Source of the DNA: Escherichia coli O157 typing phage 4
DNA length: 64,000 nt
Sequence record: KP869102
Direction: 5' to 3' (one strand)
The first letter of the stretch is position 1. Each line of letters begins with the position of its first letter. Below are positions 29,306 through 36,133 of the stretch, piece after piece. A program made the position numbers and the translations under genes. The notes beneath the pieces are model-generated. The model was not told the DNA's origin. It was given only the letters and a program-made list of their open reading frames with translations, and searched no databases.

Positions 29306-30490
29306 TTAAGCTTTAGCCAAAATGGCGCTAAACTCTTCACCAAACTCTTTTACAATCTTCATCAGGTTTGGGTATGCTTTGATCAGCTGAGCAACAATCT
29401 TGTCACGACCTTTACCGATAAGCAAGGCATTTCCTAAGGCATTAGGTTTCATCATCGCCATAAAGACTGAGAATACAAAATCTCGGTTCTCGTCCTTGAA
29501 GTTTTCCCAAAGGAAATCGAGGAAGTTTGCCACACAGCTAACAAGATCTTCGTCGGAGATACTTGCATTTTCCATCATATTACGAATAGCGATACAACCT
29601 TCAGATCCAAGAATCCACAAGATGTCTGGCTGTTTAGGGCCTACGTATTCTTTGCAACCTCCTGCCATAATCCGACCGATTTCCGGTAAGTTGCGTTTCT
29701 TGGTGTGGTAAGTCCAGATCTCTACCGCTGCAGTGTGACCAATAGCACCTTGCAGAAGAACACGGGCCATAGCGTCAGAAATAATACCGCTGTCAAAATC
29801 GTGCAAGATATCAGATGCAGCAACCCAAGATCGCGGTGTGGCAAAAGATGGACAATTAATCTCAGCCATGGCCTCATAATTATCAATAGCTGATGGAACT
29901 CTTTTCAGATATCCAATTACAGAGGAGTGCACCCCATTAAGGAATGCGTAGTCCTCAATAAACACCTCTGCGTTGCTTGTAACTTCTACAATGATAAAGC
30001 GGTTAGCCAGAGGGGCTTCGAGCGCCGAAAGAACAGCACCATCTGTAGAACGGTTACCTGCAGCTACAAAAACAGAGCCCTTAGGGAATGCATAGGTGCC
30101 GCACTTGTGGTCGAGCATAATCTGCATTGCAACCTTTTGCAGGTAGTTATCTGCATGAGTGAGCTCATCCAGAAAGACAATTCCGCTCCAGTCAGGATCC
30201 GCAGGCCAAAATTCTGGGATTGCAAACACTGTACGTGTAGTCCCATCCGCTTCTACAGGGATAGGTAGCCCAGATAAGTCGGCAGGATCTTTATCTGACA
30301 GCCGCACGTCAACCAGGTTGTCATCTCGCTCACCGAACATATTATCAGCGATCTGCTTCATCACCTGACTCTTTCCCACACCCATTGGTCCTAAAATCAG
30401 GACAGATCGGTTATGACGCTGGGCAAACTGAATGATAGCTGGCAACTCACGGACAGTGATTTGACCACTTTCAAATACGTTTCTTGACAT
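29306..30490 (-). CDS. AAA+ ATPase, MoxR/AAA_5-like
   Basis: 394 aa; Walker A GPMGVGKS; Walker B IVFLDELTHA. Confidence 0.85.
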   Translation of the reverse strand: MSRNVFESGQITVRELPAIIQFAQRHNRSVLILGPMGVGKSQVMKQIADNMFGERDDNLVDVRLSDKDPADLSGLPIPVEADGTTRTVFAIPEFWPADPDWSGIVFLDELTHADNYLQKVAMQIMLDHKCGTYAFPKGSVFVAAGNRSTDGAVLSALEAPLANRFIIVEVTSNAEVFIEDYAFLNGVHSSVIGYLKRVPSAIDNYEAMAEINCPSFATPRSWVAASDILHDFDSGIISDAMARVLLQGAIGHTAAVEIWTYHTKKRNLPEIGRIMAGGCKEYVGPKQPDILWILGSEGCIAIRNMMENASISDEDLVSCVANFLDFLWENFKDENRDFVFSVFMAMMKPNALGNALLIGKGRDKIVAQLIKAYPNLMKIVKEFGEEFSAILAKA

Positions 30491-31816: not shown

Positions 31817-32087
31817 TTGTCATTTTACATTCTTGAAATTTTAACACAAGACGGTGATTGTGCCTAGTGTCTAAAAAGATTTTCTCAACCATCAGGCACA
31901 CGGTATAACCGTCCATCTTGTTGATAACAAAATCTCCAGGGTGAGGGAGGATGTCTCCCGGATTGGGGAAACATAGTCCACTCAGAAAGGCATCGTCAGT
32001 GGTGGACTTAATAGATTTCCACACACTGTCTGCCTGAACATGCTCACCGACGTAATATACATTACCACATGCCTTCATCATAGTCAA
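31809..32087 (-). CDS. hypothetical protein
   Basis: ORF track 92 aa. Confidence 0.5.
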   Translation of the reverse strand: MTMMKACGNVYYVGEHVQADSVWKSIKSTTDDAFLSGLCFPNPGDILPHPGDFVINKMDGYTVCLMVEKIFLDTRHNHRLVLKFQECKMTIA

Positions 32088-32983
32088 ATCCCCGCATAAA
32101 TTAAACTTGTATCAGTATACTTCTTTAACGGGTAAATATCCTGTCCGTAGATGTAGTCATTAAACACCTCATCTACCCAAAGACTGCATTTATACCCCAT
32201 CATTTCTAAAACACCCATCTCTTCATCAGTAAATTTATCACCACTTTTGCAGGATGTCAATACCTCATTTTGTACTCTTGCCAGTTCAAAAATGTTGTTA
32301 GCAATGTCACTATTAACGATCAGGTATTCACCTAAAGGGTGTGCGGCATTAAAGATGCACAGTGGGCGGTTGACGTAATAGTCCCCAGGTGTATAGAAAT
32401 TGTTGAGGTCCTTCACTAGAACATTCTTATCAGTCACTTCATTTATAACATCATGCATATCGCACATCTTTATGTGCTTGAGGATTCCATCCCCCATCAC
32501 AAAATAAAAACTTGCTGAGATACTCTCGGCATAGATCTTACTGGACCCGTTGTAGTTGTATTTTACGCGAATGCTCACGGGGGTTTTTCCTGTCGCGTTA
32601 GCCATCATCCAAAGGAACGGAAGTTCAAACTTCTCTTCTGAGGAAACAAAAGGTGAAGTTGCCAGAGATCGGAAACCTCCAGAAAAGTTGAAAGTCACAG
32701 AACCGCTCCGGCGGTATGATACCGCGTATTCTACTTTTATATCGACATACCCGTTGGAATAGGTGTGTCCTTCATTATCTAAATATGTCCACTTATCAGA
32801 CCCCGATACCAATCTACGCTCAATCACCTTCATCACTATAGGAATTAGCGGGTTGGTACAAACCGCTTTTGAAGTAGCTTTAGCATCTAAATCCTCGTAA
32901 ATTGCAGAAAGGATGTCTCCAGCTGAAAGATTGGTTGTTATATCCTGTTGCCACCGCGTACTAAAACTGTTAAGATTTGCCAT
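32084..32983 (-). CDS. hypothetical protein
   Basis: ORF track 299 aa. Confidence 0.55.
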   Translation of the reverse strand: MANLNSFSTRWQQDITTNLSAGDILSAIYEDLDAKATSKAVCTNPLIPIVMKVIERRLVSGSDKWTYLDNEGHTYSNGYVDIKVEYAVSYRRSGSVTFNFSGGFRSLATSPFVSSEEKFELPFLWMMANATGKTPVSIRVKYNYNGSSKIYAESISASFYFVMGDGILKHIKMCDMHDVINEVTDKNVLVKDLNNFYTPGDYYVNRPLCIFNAAHPLGEYLIVNSDIANNIFELARVQNEVLTSCKSGDKFTDEEMGVLEMMGYKCSLWVDEVFNDYIYGQDIYPLKKYTDTSLIYAGI

Positions 32984-33065
32984 GAGTGAGTGCTCCTATG
33001 TTAGTTTTCTTTCGAATGGGTGCACTATATCGGAGATTTAGAGTAAAGTCAACACGTTTTTGATG

Positions 33066-33094
33066 TTGACATCTGTTGAGACAATTGATAAGAT
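33066..33094 (+). promoter_or_regulatory. sigma70-type promoter (TTGACA-17-TAAGAT)
   Basis: -35 at 33066-33071, 17-nt spacer, -10 at 33089-33094; sits inside the track-predicted N-terminus of the next ORF. Confidence 0.45.
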
Positions 33095-33125
33095 TTCTTC
33101 ACTTACAGAGCACGAGAGACAACTC

Positions 33126-34103
33126 ATGAATCTTGAAAAATATTATACACCAGAAGAGTTAGAGCGCCTGCTCAAAAAATATAGACGCAAACAGAATAAT
33201 GCACGGAAACGAGATATAGAGTTCGACCTGTCGTGGGAAGAATACCTACTATTTGGTAAAAAACTTTTAGGGGAAGGGGTATGCGACTACACCCTTATAC
33301 CTTTCGACATGCACACAGATGAAAACGGACTGGGAAATCCTTTCTATCCATCTCTGGAGCGGATAGATGATGAAGGTCCTTACGCAATTGATAATTGTTG
33401 TGTGGTAGGGTTGAGGTGCAACGCTCTGAAGGACTGTCTGGTAGATAAAAAGACTGCAATCTTGATAAAAGACAAAACTGATCGAAAAATTGTCCAGCAG
33501 ATGATGCTCCACCTGAGCGAAGAGCGTATGGAGAAATTGAAAGGTGATTATACTTTTGAAGATTTCATCTTGCAATACGGGACAGAAGAAGATAAACTAG
33601 CACTTTTTGACGAAGAGGAAGAAGATATGTCACCAATGCAGGACTTTAAAAATTTCATGGCTGATCGTGCAGCCAACAAACACATTTCAGATATCGTAAA
33701 CGAAACTGTGACAGAAGAAATTGAAGAACAGAACTCTGAAGAGGAAAAAGAGCCTCAGGAGGTCGAAGAGGAGATTGCAGAAGAGGTTCCTGCACTGCCT
33801 GATGATGTTGAGGTTGCTAAGGCTTACACTTTCTATTGTCAAACGTTCTACGATGCAGGTATGAAAGTTGATCTGTCGTTCAGCCAATTTAAGAGTTCAT
33901 ATATTCGCAAATGCTGTGCTTTAACTGGTGAACGTCTCGGAGCTGGACTTAAACCGCTGTTGGTGACCGACTGGAATAAAGGTTTCACTAAAGGAAACTT
34001 TATGGTAGTATCTCCAATTATGGAAAAAGCCATGACAGATCTTATGAAGACCACTCGCATGACAATGACTGAGTTGGCAGGTATTTTCAAACACGTTAAA
34101 TAA
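33126..34103 (+). CDS. hypothetical protein with internal duplication, degenerate HNH-like motif and acidic linker
   Basis: Track ORF 33060-34103 (347 aa, TTG start); ATG at 33126 lies downstream of the promoter; the two halves resemble each other; HNH-like RIDDEGPYAIDNCCVVGLRCNALK; Glu-rich linker. Confidence 0.5.
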   Translation: MNLEKYYTPEELERLLKKYRRKQNNARKRDIEFDLSWEEYLLFGKKLLGEGVCDYTLIPFDMHTDENGLGNPFYPSLERIDDEGPYAIDNCCVVGLRCNALKDCLVDKKTAILIKDKTDRKIVQQMMLHLSEERMEKLKGDYTFEDFILQYGTEEDKLALFDEEEEDMSPMQDFKNFMADRAANKHISDIVNETVTEEIEEQNSEEEKEPQEVEEEIAEEVPALPDDVEVAKAYTFYCQTFYDAGMKVDLSFSQFKSSYIRKCCALTGERLGAGLKPLLVTDWNKGFTKGNFMVVSPIMEKAMTDLMKTTRMTMTELAGIFKHVK

Positions 34104-34107
34104 TGAC

Positions 34108-34124
34108 AGGGGCCAATGGCCCCT
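34108..34124 (+). other. GC-rich hairpin (AGGGGCC-AAT-GGCCCCT), no T-run
   Basis: Perfect 7-bp stem between the two plus-strand genes; overlaps the track start of the vWA ORF. Confidence 0.4.
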
Positions 34125-34136
34125 TCTGGAGTTTTA

Positions 34137-35597
34137 ATGGATAGCAGAAGTTCAGAAATCGTTGCCTCACAGAAAGATGATGCCCTGAGAATGTTGCAGG
34201 CTGCACGTATGTATCTCCTTGAAAAGCTGCCGTTTTATGGCACACTGCTGTCAGGGTTGCAGTTCGTAGAAAACCACACATGGTGCTCCACCATGGCAAC
34301 CGACCATAAACGCATCTATTACAGCCCTGAGTTCATTATGGGATTGGCTGATGAACGCAAGGCTATTCTTAAGGCTTCTCTAACTGACAAGCAGTTTGAG
34401 ATGGCTGAGGTTTTCTATTCCCCCAAATCTGTGAAAGAGGTGGCCTTTCTTCTGTCGCATGAGGTGGGGCATATTATCTGTGATCACCTGGTCCGTGGTA
34501 AAAGCTTTGAGCCGGAACTGTTCAATATTGCTTGTGATCACGTTATCAACACAGGCCTTGTGGTTGACTTTAGCAAACCTCCTTGTGTTTTCTTCTCGAA
34601 GGGGAAAAGCACTACGTTCGTGAAAGGTAAGCCTTTTGGCTTCTTAGCCAGCTGCTACTGCGACATGAAGTTTCATGGATGGATTGCTGAGAACGTCTAT
34701 GCAGTTCTTGATAAGCAAAGAGATCAGAATAACGGTAAAAGTAAGAGCGGTAAAGGTGAGAACTCTCAAGGAGATAAGCGACAAACCGATGATCACATGA
34801 GCGGGAACGGTGGCACCAGTGATGATCTTGGAAAGGCTATGGGGTATGATCAGCCACAACCTGTAATCAGCCAATCTGATAAAGATCAGGCCATGCAGGA
34901 CTCTGGTGACATGCTGGAGGCAGCAATGCAAGCTTCTGGAGGTCGTTGCCCTGAGGCGGTGCGTGAGTTTGTCAAGAATAGAGGTAAGCCTGTAATCAAT
35001 TATATAGACATCATCAAGCAACGCATGTTGTCTAAAAGAAAGGCCGAACTGACCTACAGAAAACCTGGTCGCCGATCTGGGTCTTTGACCAGCACAATGC
35101 GAAAAGTCGGAGCTATAAACAAGAACCAACACGTTATTGTTCCTGGTCGTAATCCGGAAAACACTATAGATATTGTGGTGGCTTTGGACGTTTCTGGTTC
35201 GATCTCTCAAAGAACTTTAAAGAAAATGTTCAATGAGATCACAGGATTGTGCAATCTGTATAAAGAGTTTAAGGTTACAATGTTCTGTTGGTCAACTGAG
35301 GTTGGAGAGGTTAAAGTATACACTCGCGGCAACATAGACGAGATGATCAACTATGAGGTACACTCAACATGGGGCACAACGGCTGCTTGCGTGTTCGAGT
35401 ATCTGGATGCCAACATACCGAATGCAAAAGATGTCATCGTCCTGACCGACCTATACTTTGAGCATAACTTTGAACAAAAGGCTGTTGACAACAAGTGGAA
35501 AAAGTACGATACTTTATGGGTTCTAACCGAAGGGTATAATAAAAATTATATCCCTAGCTTTGGTAAAACTGTGGAATTAATCGAGTACGCTAAGTAA
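34137..35597 (+). CDS. vWA-domain protein with N-terminal HExxH metallopeptidase-like domain
   Basis: Track ORF 34116-35597 (493 aa); HEVGHIICDH zinc-binding motif; vWA MIDAS motif VVALDVSGSI; second ATG at 34137 avoids the hairpin. Confidence 0.75.
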   Translation: MDSRSSEIVASQKDDALRMLQAARMYLLEKLPFYGTLLSGLQFVENHTWCSTMATDHKRIYYSPEFIMGLADERKAILKASLTDKQFEMAEVFYSPKSVKEVAFLLSHEVGHIICDHLVRGKSFEPELFNIACDHVINTGLVVDFSKPPCVFFSKGKSTTFVKGKPFGFLASCYCDMKFHGWIAENVYAVLDKQRDQNNGKSKSGKGENSQGDKRQTDDHMSGNGGTSDDLGKAMGYDQPQPVISQSDKDQAMQDSGDMLEAAMQASGGRCPEAVREFVKNRGKPVINYIDIIKQRMLSKRKAELTYRKPGRRSGSLTSTMRKVGAINKNQHVIVPGRNPENTIDIVVALDVSGSISQRTLKKMFNEITGLCNLYKEFKVTMFCWSTEVGEVKVYTRGNIDEMINYEVHSTWGTTAACVFEYLDANIPNAKDVIVLTDLYFEHNFEQKAVDNKWKKYDTLWVLTEGYNKNYIPSFGKTVELIEYAK

Positions 35598-35603
35598 GAG
35601 AGG

Positions 35604-35870
35604 ATGTTATTTATGGCAACAGAGGTAGTAATTAAAGCTGAACGCCCAGTTAAAAAAGCTATCAACACGTTCCCTGTGGGAACCATTGTGAGCATGATCA
35701 CAGAGTCAGGTCGTGTATCTACGCTACTGATTGTGAAATCTGCATGTTCTTCTTGTGTGTGGGCTTACGATCTGGACGAGAAAGAACTAAAAGATTTTGT
35801 TGGGGAGCTGAAAGCAACCGAGCTCGATGCTCGTATCGAAGTATTTGGTGAAACTATGGAGGAAGAGTAA
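35604..35870 (+). CDS. hypothetical protein
   Basis: 88 aa; RBS AGAGGA. Confidence 0.5.
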   Translation: MLFMATEVVIKAERPVKKAINTFPVGTIVSMITESGRVSTLLIVKSACSSCVWAYDLDEKELKDFVGELKATELDARIEVFGETMEEE

Positions 35871-36133
35871 TGACCACGAAAATCACTATTGCAGAACCGA
35901 AAGCTAACACACAACCTATCGAAAAGTTTAAATGCGGCGAGGTGGTAACATTCACACCAGATAATGAAGATGCTAAGATTTTCGCTATGGTCACAGCTGA
36001 GTGGATGTGTGACAATACCACACAAGTACTACGTTTCGATACCTACCTCACAGATGAGATCCGAAACGATAAGATCGTGACAGGTGTGGACACTGAAATT
36101 ATTTTCTACAAGAGCTTTTTAGAGGGTTTCTGA
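35870..36133 (+). CDS. hypothetical protein
   Basis: 87 aa; RBS GGAGGAAGAG; ATGA overlap. Confidence 0.5.
   Translation: MTTKITIAEPKANTQPIEKFKCGEVVTFTPDNEDAKIFAMVTAEWMCDNTTQVLRFDTYLTDEIRNDKIVTGVDTEIIFYKSFLEGF

Follow-up and report, generated by a model that had tools for sequence, protein, structure and literature searches.

The locus studied here raises the question whether a phage protein with a nuclease-like motif but without the catalytic histidine should be regarded as a dead enzyme. The window is a stretch of 64,000 nucleotides from Escherichia coli O157 typing phage 4 (sequence record KP869102), and the ORF in question lies on its plus strand at 33060–34103. An earlier note, based on the letters and the ORF translations, had described the product as a protein with two mutually resembling halves, an HNH-like motif lacking the His in the first half and a strongly acidic linker between the halves. 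It had proposed either an inactivated nuclease fold repurposed for DNA binding or a DNA mimic.

The ORF is real and is gp11 of the rV5-like Vequintavirus phages, where its annotation reads 'Srd-like anti-sigma factor' or 'HNH endonuclease'. The surrounding 4-kb region shows 97% nucleotide identity to rV5 and its relatives, and the protein is 100% identical to navn_201, which is labelled 'anti-sigma factor'. The gene itself is familiar, has been sequenced many times and had been linked to Srd before, and the practical stakes are modest. The rV5 paper (2013) calls gp11 'probably a Srd homolog', puts its gene at the head of transcription unit 11–26 and describes a bidirectional promoter that separates gene 10 from gene 11. 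The following features belong to the gene and its surroundings:

33060–34103, plus strand: ORF, gp11 of rV5-like phages, with TTG at 33060, ATG at 33063 and stop codon TAA at 34101–34103
33066–33094, plus strand: predicted sigma-70-type early promoter within the called ORF, P11 of rV5 (TTGACA, 17-nt spacer, TG-TAAGAT)
33126–34103, plus strand: probable true coding sequence, from M22 to the stop codon, 325 aa
34108–34124, plus strand: GC-rich hairpin GGGGCC-AAU-GGCCCC, between the gp11 stop codon and the ribosome-binding site and ATG (34137) of the next gene

In public annotations the identical protein starts at ATG 33063 and comprises 346 aa; residue numbers given throughout count this ATG as residue 1. 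The predicted promoter matches the consensus at 10/12 positions, has an extended -10 element, coincides with P11 in the rV5 annotation and is located directly upstream of ATG 33126. Its -35 box is kept in PVP-SE1, at a site preceding the gene. Since the promoter falls inside the called ORF and the first residues of homologues from outside the genus align near residues 16–22, the real start is probably ATG 33126 (M22, 325 aa) rather than ATG 33063. A GAGAGA motif is located 6 nt 5' of ATG 33126, and database entries P0011–P0014 have the same length of 325 aa. Residues 1–21 show a conservation of 85% versus 97% and are missing outside close relatives. The hairpin downstream of the stop codon has a folding energy of -14 kcal/mol and is not statistically exceptional, because its z value is only -1.7; the start of the next gene at ATG 34137 was taken from the rV5 and navn annotations.

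The protein encoded by this ORF can be divided into the following segments, all on the plus strand:

33144–33452, plus strand: N-terminal PacI-type His-Me finger (beta-beta-alpha-metal) domain, residues 28–130, assigned from AF2, profiles and PHROG
33357–33431, plus strand: catalytic-type motif E99-R100-x-D102...Y107...N111...N120-x-x-K123, assigned from the PacI alignment and conservation
33453–33620, plus strand: helical extension, residues 131–186, with AF2 helices at 138–186 (pLDDT 88–96)
33621–33797, plus strand: acidic, predicted disordered, fast-evolving linker, residues 187–245, assigned from charge, pLDDT, identity and indels
33798–34100, plus strand: degenerate C-terminal copy of the PacI-type fold, residues 246–346

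Scans of the whole protein against Pfam, NCBIfam and PADLOC and of each half against Pfam gave nothing meaningful, a single-sequence PDB search returned no match, and a Pfam scan of 126 family members revealed no recurrent family. PHROG matches of the protein comprise HNH, endonuclease VII and Srd families. AF2 predicts the N-domain with a pLDDT above 95, with a basic helix (residues 30–49) preceding the domain core. The suspected HNH-like fold was borne out by structure prediction and profile comparison: the predicted fold is a nuclease fold, and the closest solved relative, by sequence profile as well as by fold, is the active restriction enzyme PacI. The family profile matches PacI (3ldy) with E 0.004, and hhalign of the N-domain profile against PacI residues 30–123 yields a probability of 94% and E 1.3e-7, at a sequence identity between gp11 and PacI of only 11–14%.

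PacI (3LDY/3M7K), which Jablonska et al. 2017 place in His-Me finger group 20, has 142 residues and a single domain; as a homodimer it makes a sequence-specific double-strand cut and recognises TTAATTAA. In contrast, a single gp11 chain contains the module twice in tandem, with one copy degenerate, together with a helical extension and an acidic disordered linker. PacI also holds two Cys4 zinc sites per subunit, whose ligands are missing from gp11. Of the four gp11 positions that correspond to PacI C63/C66/C109/C112, just two (C74 and C119) hold a Cys, and family-wide only C74 is kept, with T/S at 77, T/G/S at 116 and A/V/S at 119.

The HNH-like motif without His is present as L-E99-R100-I-D102...G-P-Y107...N111...C119-N120-A-L-K123. 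The canonical D-H is replaced by E-R, R100 takes the His slot and Y107 sits in the omega loop. Canonical HNH enzymes (PF01844 and relatives; T4 endonuclease VII, the Gme and GVE2 HNH enzymes, Cas9 HNH) use as the general base a His in a D-H or H-H motif at the end of strand 1, whereas gp11 has E-R and also lacks their CxxC pairs; Pfam HNH models matched neither gp11 nor its sub-domains nor the 126 family members. The N-domain motif does align column by column with PacI D92-R93-x-D95...Y100...N104...N113-x-x-K116, with Y107 opposite the sole Tyr of the PacI omega loop. E99 and N120 align with PacI D92 and N113 and are putative metal ligands. The ligand assignment for PacI combines the wording 'one Asp and one Asn' in the relevant passage of PMC4081073 with the position of the D before the His slot.

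As described in passages of PMC5714182 and PMC4081073, PacI has no catalytic His, employs an omega-loop Tyr instead and holds its single metal ion by Asp and Asn. Since PacI is active in this form, the absent His in gp11 is no sign of inactivation, and the proposal that the nuclease had been inactivated is not supported for the N-domain, which retains all equivalent residues. Conservation was determined in 126 homologues with 20–67% identity. E/D99 (E in 112, D in 14), R100, Y107 and N111 are found in 126/126, N120 in 122 and K123 in 123. T4 Srd, single-domain relatives and tandem proteins with both copies intact show the E-R...Y...N...N residues as well. The N-domain thus looks like a live PacI-type site and not like a dead one. 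Judged by sequence and predicted fold, the gp11 family, T4 Srd included, has the tyrosine variant of the HNH fold that is known from PacI, and its catalytic residues are unimpaired.

A conserved site could nevertheless serve binding alone, if gp11 were a purely non-catalytic adaptor in which both domains are nuclease fossils and the conserved residues only hold an RNA or protein partner, for example to activate or redirect RNase E in the manner proposed for T4 Srd. There are earlier cases of His-Me fingers recruited for binding without catalysis (Smad MH1 domain, Enpp), the PacI-type structural zinc site is lost, the overall charge of the protein is acidic, and the only characterised relative, T4 Srd, is described in papers citing the original work as an RNase E-binding activator and not as a nuclease. 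However, catalytic residues decay in known dead His-Me fingers, as they do in the C-domain of gp11 itself, and both metal ligands, the Tyr and the Arg of the N-domain vary little or not at all among 126 distant homologues with different hosts. This near-invariance is hard to explain by binding alone, and we consider an adaptor of this kind possible but doubtful.

The resemblance of the two halves was found to be genuine by deep profiles, though not when the halves were compared directly. In a Smith-Waterman alignment the N and C halves scored 25 against a shuffle mean of 27, with 667/1000 shuffles equal or better; the score being at chance, self-similarity cannot be claimed from the single sequence. 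A shallow profile comparison with 12 close homologues likewise gave a probability of 0.6% in the wrong register, and the comparison succeeded only once an exhaustive search had added distant homologues. With 133 N-domains against 133 C-domains hhalign returned a probability of 97.5% and E 8e-12 over 83 columns. The probability was 96.5% when restricted to close relatives and 96.9% after N-like C-domains had been taken out, while column-shuffled and reversed controls stayed at or below 1.3% with E of at least 0.04. Of the two correspondences pointed out in the earlier note, DIEFDLSWEEY with MKVDLSFSQF is in the right register, whereas GEGVCDYTL with GERLGAGL is slightly off, the true partners being C74-D-Y-T-L and C285-A-L-T-G. 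Independent support for the duplication comes from T4 Srd, whose residues 30–80 align to both halves by BLASTP (E 5e-7 and 1e-3). Single-domain proteins are also matched at the same place by the N and C HMMs (8e-33 and 2e-17 for P0128). The duplication is therefore real but ancient, and both halves are homologous and share one common fold.

The representative search also brought up P0144, P0160, P0169 and P0176, which likewise contain two PacI-type modules per chain. Both of their copies keep PS(L/I)DRID...GY...N...N, in contrast to gp11 with its degenerate second copy. The existence of tandem proteins with both copies intact shows that single-chain 'dimers' of the PacI-like module recur. A degenerate second copy as in gp11 is found in ~130 further cluster representatives.

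It is the C-domain and not the N-domain that is the degenerate copy, a point that the earlier note had not singled out. Its catalytic positions are replaced by L300, V301, F308, E321 and M324, for the most part hydrophobic residues, while D303, N312 and C285 are kept; the Tyr position, F308 in gp11, is V/I/F/L across the family. The C-domain is conserved as strongly as the N-domain, which is not the case for the linker. A comparison of the C-domain profile with the PacI sequence gave no sequence-level signal, so that the link between C-domain and PacI rests on the fold and on the N-to-C profile match. The full-length model has a pTM of 0.60 and superpositions on homologous models give a very large rmsd, hence the relative placement of the two domains is not confidently predicted.

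The linker between the domains is strongly acidic as had been noted, with a net charge of -16 over residues 187–245 (59 residues). The whole protein has a net charge of -25 and a pI of 4.7, and the N core a charge of -4. An acidic protein with such a core is unusual for a nucleic-acid enzyme. The linker is predicted with an AF2 pLDDT of 49–61 (about 50–60). Its identity to homologues is 72/39/28/25% versus 97/76/70/50% for the N core, and it contains indels. Across the family the linker charge has a median of -2 and is basic in some members; strong acidity is restricted to the rV5 lineage.

DNA mimics such as Ocr and ArdA display their acidic residues on a rigid fold. If gp11 were a mimic, its Glu-rich segment would imitate the DNA backbone and trap a host DNA-binding protein, and the charges of segment and protein, together with the acidity of the segment in all close relatives, are in line with this idea. 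The segment is, however, predicted to be disordered, is the quickest part of the protein to diverge, is not constant in length and has a neutral or even a basic charge in many family members. Disorder, fast change and lineage-limited acidity do not support the proposed mimicry, which we rate as the least probable of the explanations considered. In a weaker variant it is possible that the acidic tether folds back onto the basic helix 30–49 or the basic C-domain as an autoinhibitor.

Database labels for the gene family conflict, comprising 'anti-sigma factor', 'HNH endonuclease', 'anti-termination' and 'type II restriction endonuclease'. The first of these goes back to a 1998 proposal for T4 Srd, according to which gp11 would be an anti-sigma factor or a decoy of sigma-70/sigma-S. 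It stands in the GenBank annotation of rV5 and many relatives, and the authors of the rV5 paper suggest that gp11 takes part in switching transcription from early to late. Yet sigma-factor Pfam models matched neither gp11 nor T4 Srd even at E up to 1–10, no sigma or anti-sigma NCBIfam match was obtained either, and none recurred in the 126 members, where one Sigma54_CBD match in a single protein (E 0.0016) has the look of noise. The fold resembles a nuclease and not a sigma region, and the experimentally supported activity of T4 Srd, as given in citing papers, concerns RNase E. An anti-sigma function thus seems very improbable.

The restriction-type label, which comes from one database source, would fit a homing or selfish endonuclease that is free-standing and cuts DNA at specific sequences, as would the PacI-type fold and active site; PacI-like HNH genes of lactococcal Skunavirus phages are presumed homing endonucleases. 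A homing endonuclease would be expected to come and go among close relatives and to be inserted beside or inside a target gene. The gene is not sporadic, however, the whole 4-kb region being present with an intact locus at at least 90% identity in 116/118 matching phage records of related phages. It is syntenic in the Seunavirus PVP-SE1, a different genus, where the promoter-proximal position is the same. Two-domain homologues are present in other phage subfamilies, both domains are under strong purifying selection, and the locus shows no disruption of a target gene and no intron or intein context. Homing therefore strikes us as highly unlikely.

The exhaustive search placed ~2,950 cluster representatives in the family, which no Pfam model covers. 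A DUF2201/VWA gene is adjacent to gp11 in Vequintavirus, and in PVP-SE1 one small ORF lies between the two. This gene is not listed beside the homologue in SSBI34, Aeromonas TS9, Klebsiella FBKp34, Vibrio K460 or T4, and the neighbours in SSBI34, TS9, FBKp34 and K460 are mostly hypothetical proteins. Among the genomes compared (Vequintavirus, PVP-SE1, SSBI34, TS9, FBKp34, K460, T4) we found no conserved gene neighbour that would indicate a pathway. On the whole gp11 belongs to a known family of phage proteins, of which it is a genuine but for the most part ordinary representative.

T4 Srd is the member of this family to which a function has been assigned. BLASTP aligned gp11 residues 29–164 to T4 Srd (NP_049634) with E 5e-7, the N-domain HMM matched T4 Srd residues 7–133 at 9e-20, and PHROG 1400 and 4592, both Srd families, match gp11. 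The two proteins have the helical extension in common up to about residue 164, T4 Srd shows the same E-R-x-D...G-Y...N...N-x-x-(K/R) residues as the N-domain, and both come from large virulent myoviruses, where T4 Srd is, and gp11 probably is, the product of an early gene. A second PacI-like domain was sought in T4 Srd, where residues 126–248 match neither domain profile. T4 Srd also differs from gp11 in its strongly basic character (+27, pI 10) and in the absence of an acidic linker, and its gene lies next to modA and dda.1, whereas the neighbour of gp11 is the DUF2201 metallopeptidase/VWA gene.

According to passages in PMC4980113, PMC7430671 and PMC13232886, T4 Srd binds RNase E at its catalytic N-terminal half and promotes the decay of host mRNA; the result is that of Qi et al. 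2015 as conveyed by citing papers. The effect is reported to depend on RNase E, which speaks against Srd being just an RNase that works on its own. Its homology to T4 Srd suggests that gp11 may have a role at RNase E or in host mRNA decay. Since T4 Srd lacks the C-domain and has an unrelated C-terminal half, the RNase E function may not transfer to gp11.

We lean, by no wide measure of confidence, towards gp11 being an early host-takeover factor of the Srd family in Vequintavirus and a probable tyrosine-type metal nuclease with a dead partner domain. Its gene would open a transcription unit that is read early from a sigma-70 promoter. A PacI-type module that was duplicated in tandem long ago makes up the protein, as a catalytic-type N copy and a degenerate C copy, which are connected by the helical extension and a predicted disordered, lineage-specific acidic tether. 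The N-domain may bind a divalent metal and a nucleic-acid phosphodiester and would most likely cleave the latter. E/D99 and N120 would then be the putative metal ligands, with R100 in the His slot and N111 in a structural role. Y107 could serve either as the general base or as the nucleophile, in line with the proposal for PacI, giving 5'-phosphate ends. The dead C-domain may be a non-catalytic module that binds substrate or a partner, and it may replace the second subunit of a PacI-type homodimer in a putative pseudo-dimer. Early in infection such a protein would most likely participate in host RNA turnover or, alternatively, attack host DNA.

A more far-reaching version, which we deem unlikely, would hold that Srd-family proteins including T4 Srd are not passive 'anti-sigma' or adaptor proteins but active tyrosine-type, PacI-like metal nucleases that cut host transcripts or nick host DNA, the C copy being a pseudo-dimer partner for recognition of the substrate or of a partner. 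Cleavage would then leave 5'-monophosphate ends, on RNA the preferred entry signal for RNase E. As such ends are favoured by RNase E, this would explain the 'stimulation of RNase E' by T4 Srd. In T4 there is a precedent in polynucleotide kinase, which stimulates host endoribonucleases and parallels the route proposed for Srd.

The case of gp11 means that a His-Me finger protein should not be called 'inactive' on the ground that it has 'no catalytic His'. The only studied family member, T4 Srd, is known from citing papers just to 'stimulate RNase E'. The PacI-type fold of the family and its intact catalytic residues, together with a dead but equally conserved second copy in a large subfamily, would provide a concrete, testable mechanism for these early host-takeover proteins.

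The sequence derives from an rV5-like coliphage of the genus Vequintavirus. The ORF at 33060–34103 on the plus strand is present, and the 4 kb around it showed 97% identity to rV5 and about 115 other records. The encoded protein matches navn_201, an 'anti-sigma factor', at 100% identity and rV5 gp11 at 99%; GenBank labels gp11 'anti-sigma factor; Srd-like' and RefSeq 'HNH endonuclease'. The rV5 genome paper (PMC3606486) has gp11 as 'probably a Srd homolog', its gene heading transcription unit 11-26 at a promoter that is bidirectional. We also noticed 16 GenBank 'Campylobacter phage' records (host Campylobacter jejuni; e.g. MG0656xx) matching 32000–36000, with about 97% identity among the matches listed; these probably represent coliphages of the rV5 type, either wrongly labelled or carried over in phage preparations. 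Residues are numbered from ATG 33063 (346 aa), with an N-domain at 28–130, a linker at 187–245 and a C-domain at 246–346. The following features accompany the gene:

29306–30490, minus strand: AAA/MoxR-type ATPase
32084–32983, minus strand: upstream divergent gene, rV5 gp10, annotated 'putative alpha 1-3 fucosyltransferase'
33066–33094, plus strand: predicted near-consensus sigma-70 promoter inside the gp11 ORF (TTGACA, 17 nt, TAAGAT, TG upstream)
34108–34124: perfect GC-rich hairpin GGGGCC-AAU-GGCCCC between the gp11 stop and GGAG/ATG 34137, -14 kcal/mol
34116–35597, plus strand: downstream gene, DUF2201_N putative metallopeptidase (HExxH) fused to VWA-like DUF2201 (Pfam E 2e-28 and 4e-11)

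The predicted promoter lies in the same place as P11 of the rV5 record; Salmonella phage PVP-SE1 keeps the -35 box of P11, and there the promoter precedes the homologous gene by 38 nt. The coding sequence of gp11 most likely begins at ATG 33126 (M22), with GAGAGA ahead of it, because the promoter is internal to the ORF, homologues outside the genus start at aligned residues 16–22, conservation of residues 1–21 is 85% versus 97% for the adjacent core, and some database entries are 325 aa long. Most database records probably have the start wrong. As annotated, the 5' end (ATG 33063) overlaps the gene's own predicted promoter, the first 21 codons (33063–33125) being genus-specific, and the original rV5 record uses yet another start at 33168.

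We compared gp11 with viral structure models using Foldseek. Matches comprised Srd-like 'anti-sigma factors' from many phage groups, single-domain phage HNH proteins and giant-virus proteins, the composition reported for group 20 of the His-Me finger superfamily, to which the restriction endonuclease PacI belongs (PMC5714182). Full-length superpositions gave very large rmsd values and the model a pTM of 0.60, which indicates that the relative orientation of the two predicted domains is not fixed.

The HNH-like motif RIDDEGPYAIDNCC...CN..K of the earlier note is real. Its missing histidine had been taken as a possible sign of inactivation. PacI is active without the general-base histidine of HNH nucleases, a tyrosine of the omega loop taking that role, and coordinates its only metal ion through an Asp and an Asn (PMC5714182, PMC4081073, PMC3384342). 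Profile alignment gave the following column-by-column pairs:

PacI V-D92-R93-S-D95: gp11 L-E99-R100-I-D102
PacI G-Y100: gp11 P-Y107
PacI N104: gp11 N111
PacI C112-N113: gp11 C119-N120
PacI K116: gp11 K123

Judging from the sequence, Y100 should be the catalytic tyrosine of the literature, since the inter-strand loop of PacI has no other tyrosine. Among 126 homologues of 20–67% identity, E/D99, R100, Y107 and N111 are invariant, N120 is found in 122 and K123 in 123. The same catalytic-type set is carried by the bacteriophage T4 protein Srd (SLERFD..GY...N....YNTFR), by single-domain relatives and by both copies of some tandem proteins. This pattern is the one expected of a working active site and not of a fossil, and inactivation of the motif-bearing half is not supported, given the active, His-less PacI and the near-invariance of the PacI-type residues. 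The zinc scaffold clearly differs: C74 is the sole counterpart of PacI C63/C66/C109/C112 that the gp11 family conserves. One cysteine per domain is almost invariant in the alignment (C74 in 125 and C285 in 117 of 126), located in a C-x-(Y/L)-T-G motif, the other three ligands of the PacI Cys4 site being gone.

The two halves had also been proposed to resemble each other. Direct local alignment scored 25 against a shuffle mean of 27 (667 of 1000 shuffles were as good), and profiles of the halves from 12 close homologues did not match. Searched exhaustively by profile, 1.84 billion cluster representatives yielded 2,953 relatives at E of 1e-3 or better; most of the best 150 of these share the two-domain layout. 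Profiles built from 133 N-domains and 133 C-domains matched in hhalign with 97.5% probability (E 8e-12, 83 columns), with 96.5% for close relatives only, and still with 96.9% after removing every C-domain with R/K or Y at catalytic positions. Five column-shuffled controls and one reversed control reached 1.3% or less (E at least 0.04). In plain BLASTP both halves match T4 Srd residues 30–80 (E 5e-7 and 1e-3); in single-domain proteins the N and C HMMs match at the same residues (e.g. 8e-33 and 2e-17 in the relative P0128); cross-matches also occur in annotated homologues of other phage groups (FBKp34 gp106, Aeromonas TS9, Vibrio K460). The deep-profile match, its controls and these three independent observations show that the duplication is real and ancient. 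Of the pairings claimed earlier, DIEFDLSWEEY/MKVDLSFSQF is in the right register and the second is off by a few residues, C74-D-Y-T-L pairing with C285-A-L-T-G.

It is the C-domain that is the fossil. Its equivalents of E99/R100/Y107/K123 are L300/V301/F308/M324, positions mostly hydrophobic family-wide, that of N120 is E321, variable in the family (Q/A/G/K/R/E), and only D303, N312 and C285 are retained. By identity over four successively more distant lineages, the C-domain (98/75/77/49%) is nevertheless exactly as strongly conserved as the N-domain (97/76/70/50%), so it must have some role.

The acidic segment is real, with a net charge of -16 in residues 187–245 (-25 and pI 4.7 for the whole protein). 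A DNA mimic, as suggested earlier, is not supported: the linker is predicted to be disordered, contains indels and, at 72/39/28/25% identity, has changed far more rapidly than the domains. Strong acidity is limited to the rV5 lineage and close relatives; the linkers of 153 family members have a median net charge of -2, with 30% of them neutral or basic. Such features are typical of a flexible tether and not of a DNA mimic. A local autoinhibitory role is conceivable, candidate surfaces being a very basic predicted helix at 30–49 and the basic C-domain (pI 9.1).

T4 Srd (NP_049634, sequence from NC_000866) is homologous to gp11 in the N-domain and part of the helical extension (HMM 9e-20, residues 7–133 of Srd); its C-terminal half matched neither domain profile. 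Srd is very basic (+27), whereas gp11 is very acidic. Srd was first proposed as a sigma decoy. The experimental evidence is for binding to RNase E, in its catalytic N-terminal half, and for faster decay of host mRNA (Qi et al. 2015 per PMC4980113, PMC7430671, PMC13232886). A sigma decoy is weakly supported for gp11: domain scans detected no sigma-related domain in gp11 or Srd, and none recurrent in the family. Our literature search found nothing connecting Srd with PacI or a tyrosine-type HNH site.

In Vequintavirinae the gp11 gene occupies a promoter-proximal early position, first in the rightward unit and followed by the DUF2201 metallopeptidase/VWA-like gene (annotated start 34137), opposite a leftward unit including the ATPase. 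The latter two genes are the classical MoxR-VWA pairing, split over the divergent promoter region. PHROG 1314 and RefSeq call the DUF2201 gene 'HNH endonuclease', apparently in error. The fucosyltransferase annotation of gp10 likewise appears unsupported: Pfam gave nothing up to E 1, and the sole PHROG, 12338, is of unknown function. The hairpin, with a z-score of only -1.7 against shuffles, could be an attenuator, RNA-processing site or stability element. More distant two-domain homologues (Stephanstirmvirinae; Aeromonas and Vibrio phages) lie among small unnamed early genes, and T4 srd is flanked by dda.1 and modA; across these groups we found no conserved partner gene. Throughout the subfamily gp11 is present at the same position, which argues against a homing endonuclease.

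In summary, gp11 consists of two PacI-type His-Me finger modules in tandem, the N-copy with a complete catalytic-type site; the fold and duplication of the earlier reading stand, whereas inactivation of the motif-bearing half and DNA mimicry lack support. Cleavage of nucleic acid by the N-domain is probable; this domain would bind a phosphodiester together with a metal, and Y107 would be the base or nucleophile. The C-domain would serve non-catalytic binding, possibly taking the place of the other subunit in a dimer like that of PacI. Biologically, gp11 would act in the takeover of the host, most plausibly on the turnover of host RNA together with RNase E. Speculatively, 5'-phosphate ends left by such a nuclease could be what 'stimulates' RNase E, in parallel to T4 polynucleotide kinase stimulating host endoribonucleases. 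Chief among the rival readings is an adaptor without any catalysis.

'HNH endonuclease' or 'type II restriction endonuclease' is what automatic pipelines call members of the family, and Pfam-A has no model, although the exhaustive search gave about 2,950 representatives of clusters at 50% identity. gp11 is a typical member of a large phage family, already named and poorly understood. The new element, computational only, is a PacI-type tyrosine site that gp11 has in common with T4 Srd, combined with a dead but conserved copy, and the family would merit a curated model of the PacI/Srd-type N-domain and the degenerate C-domain.
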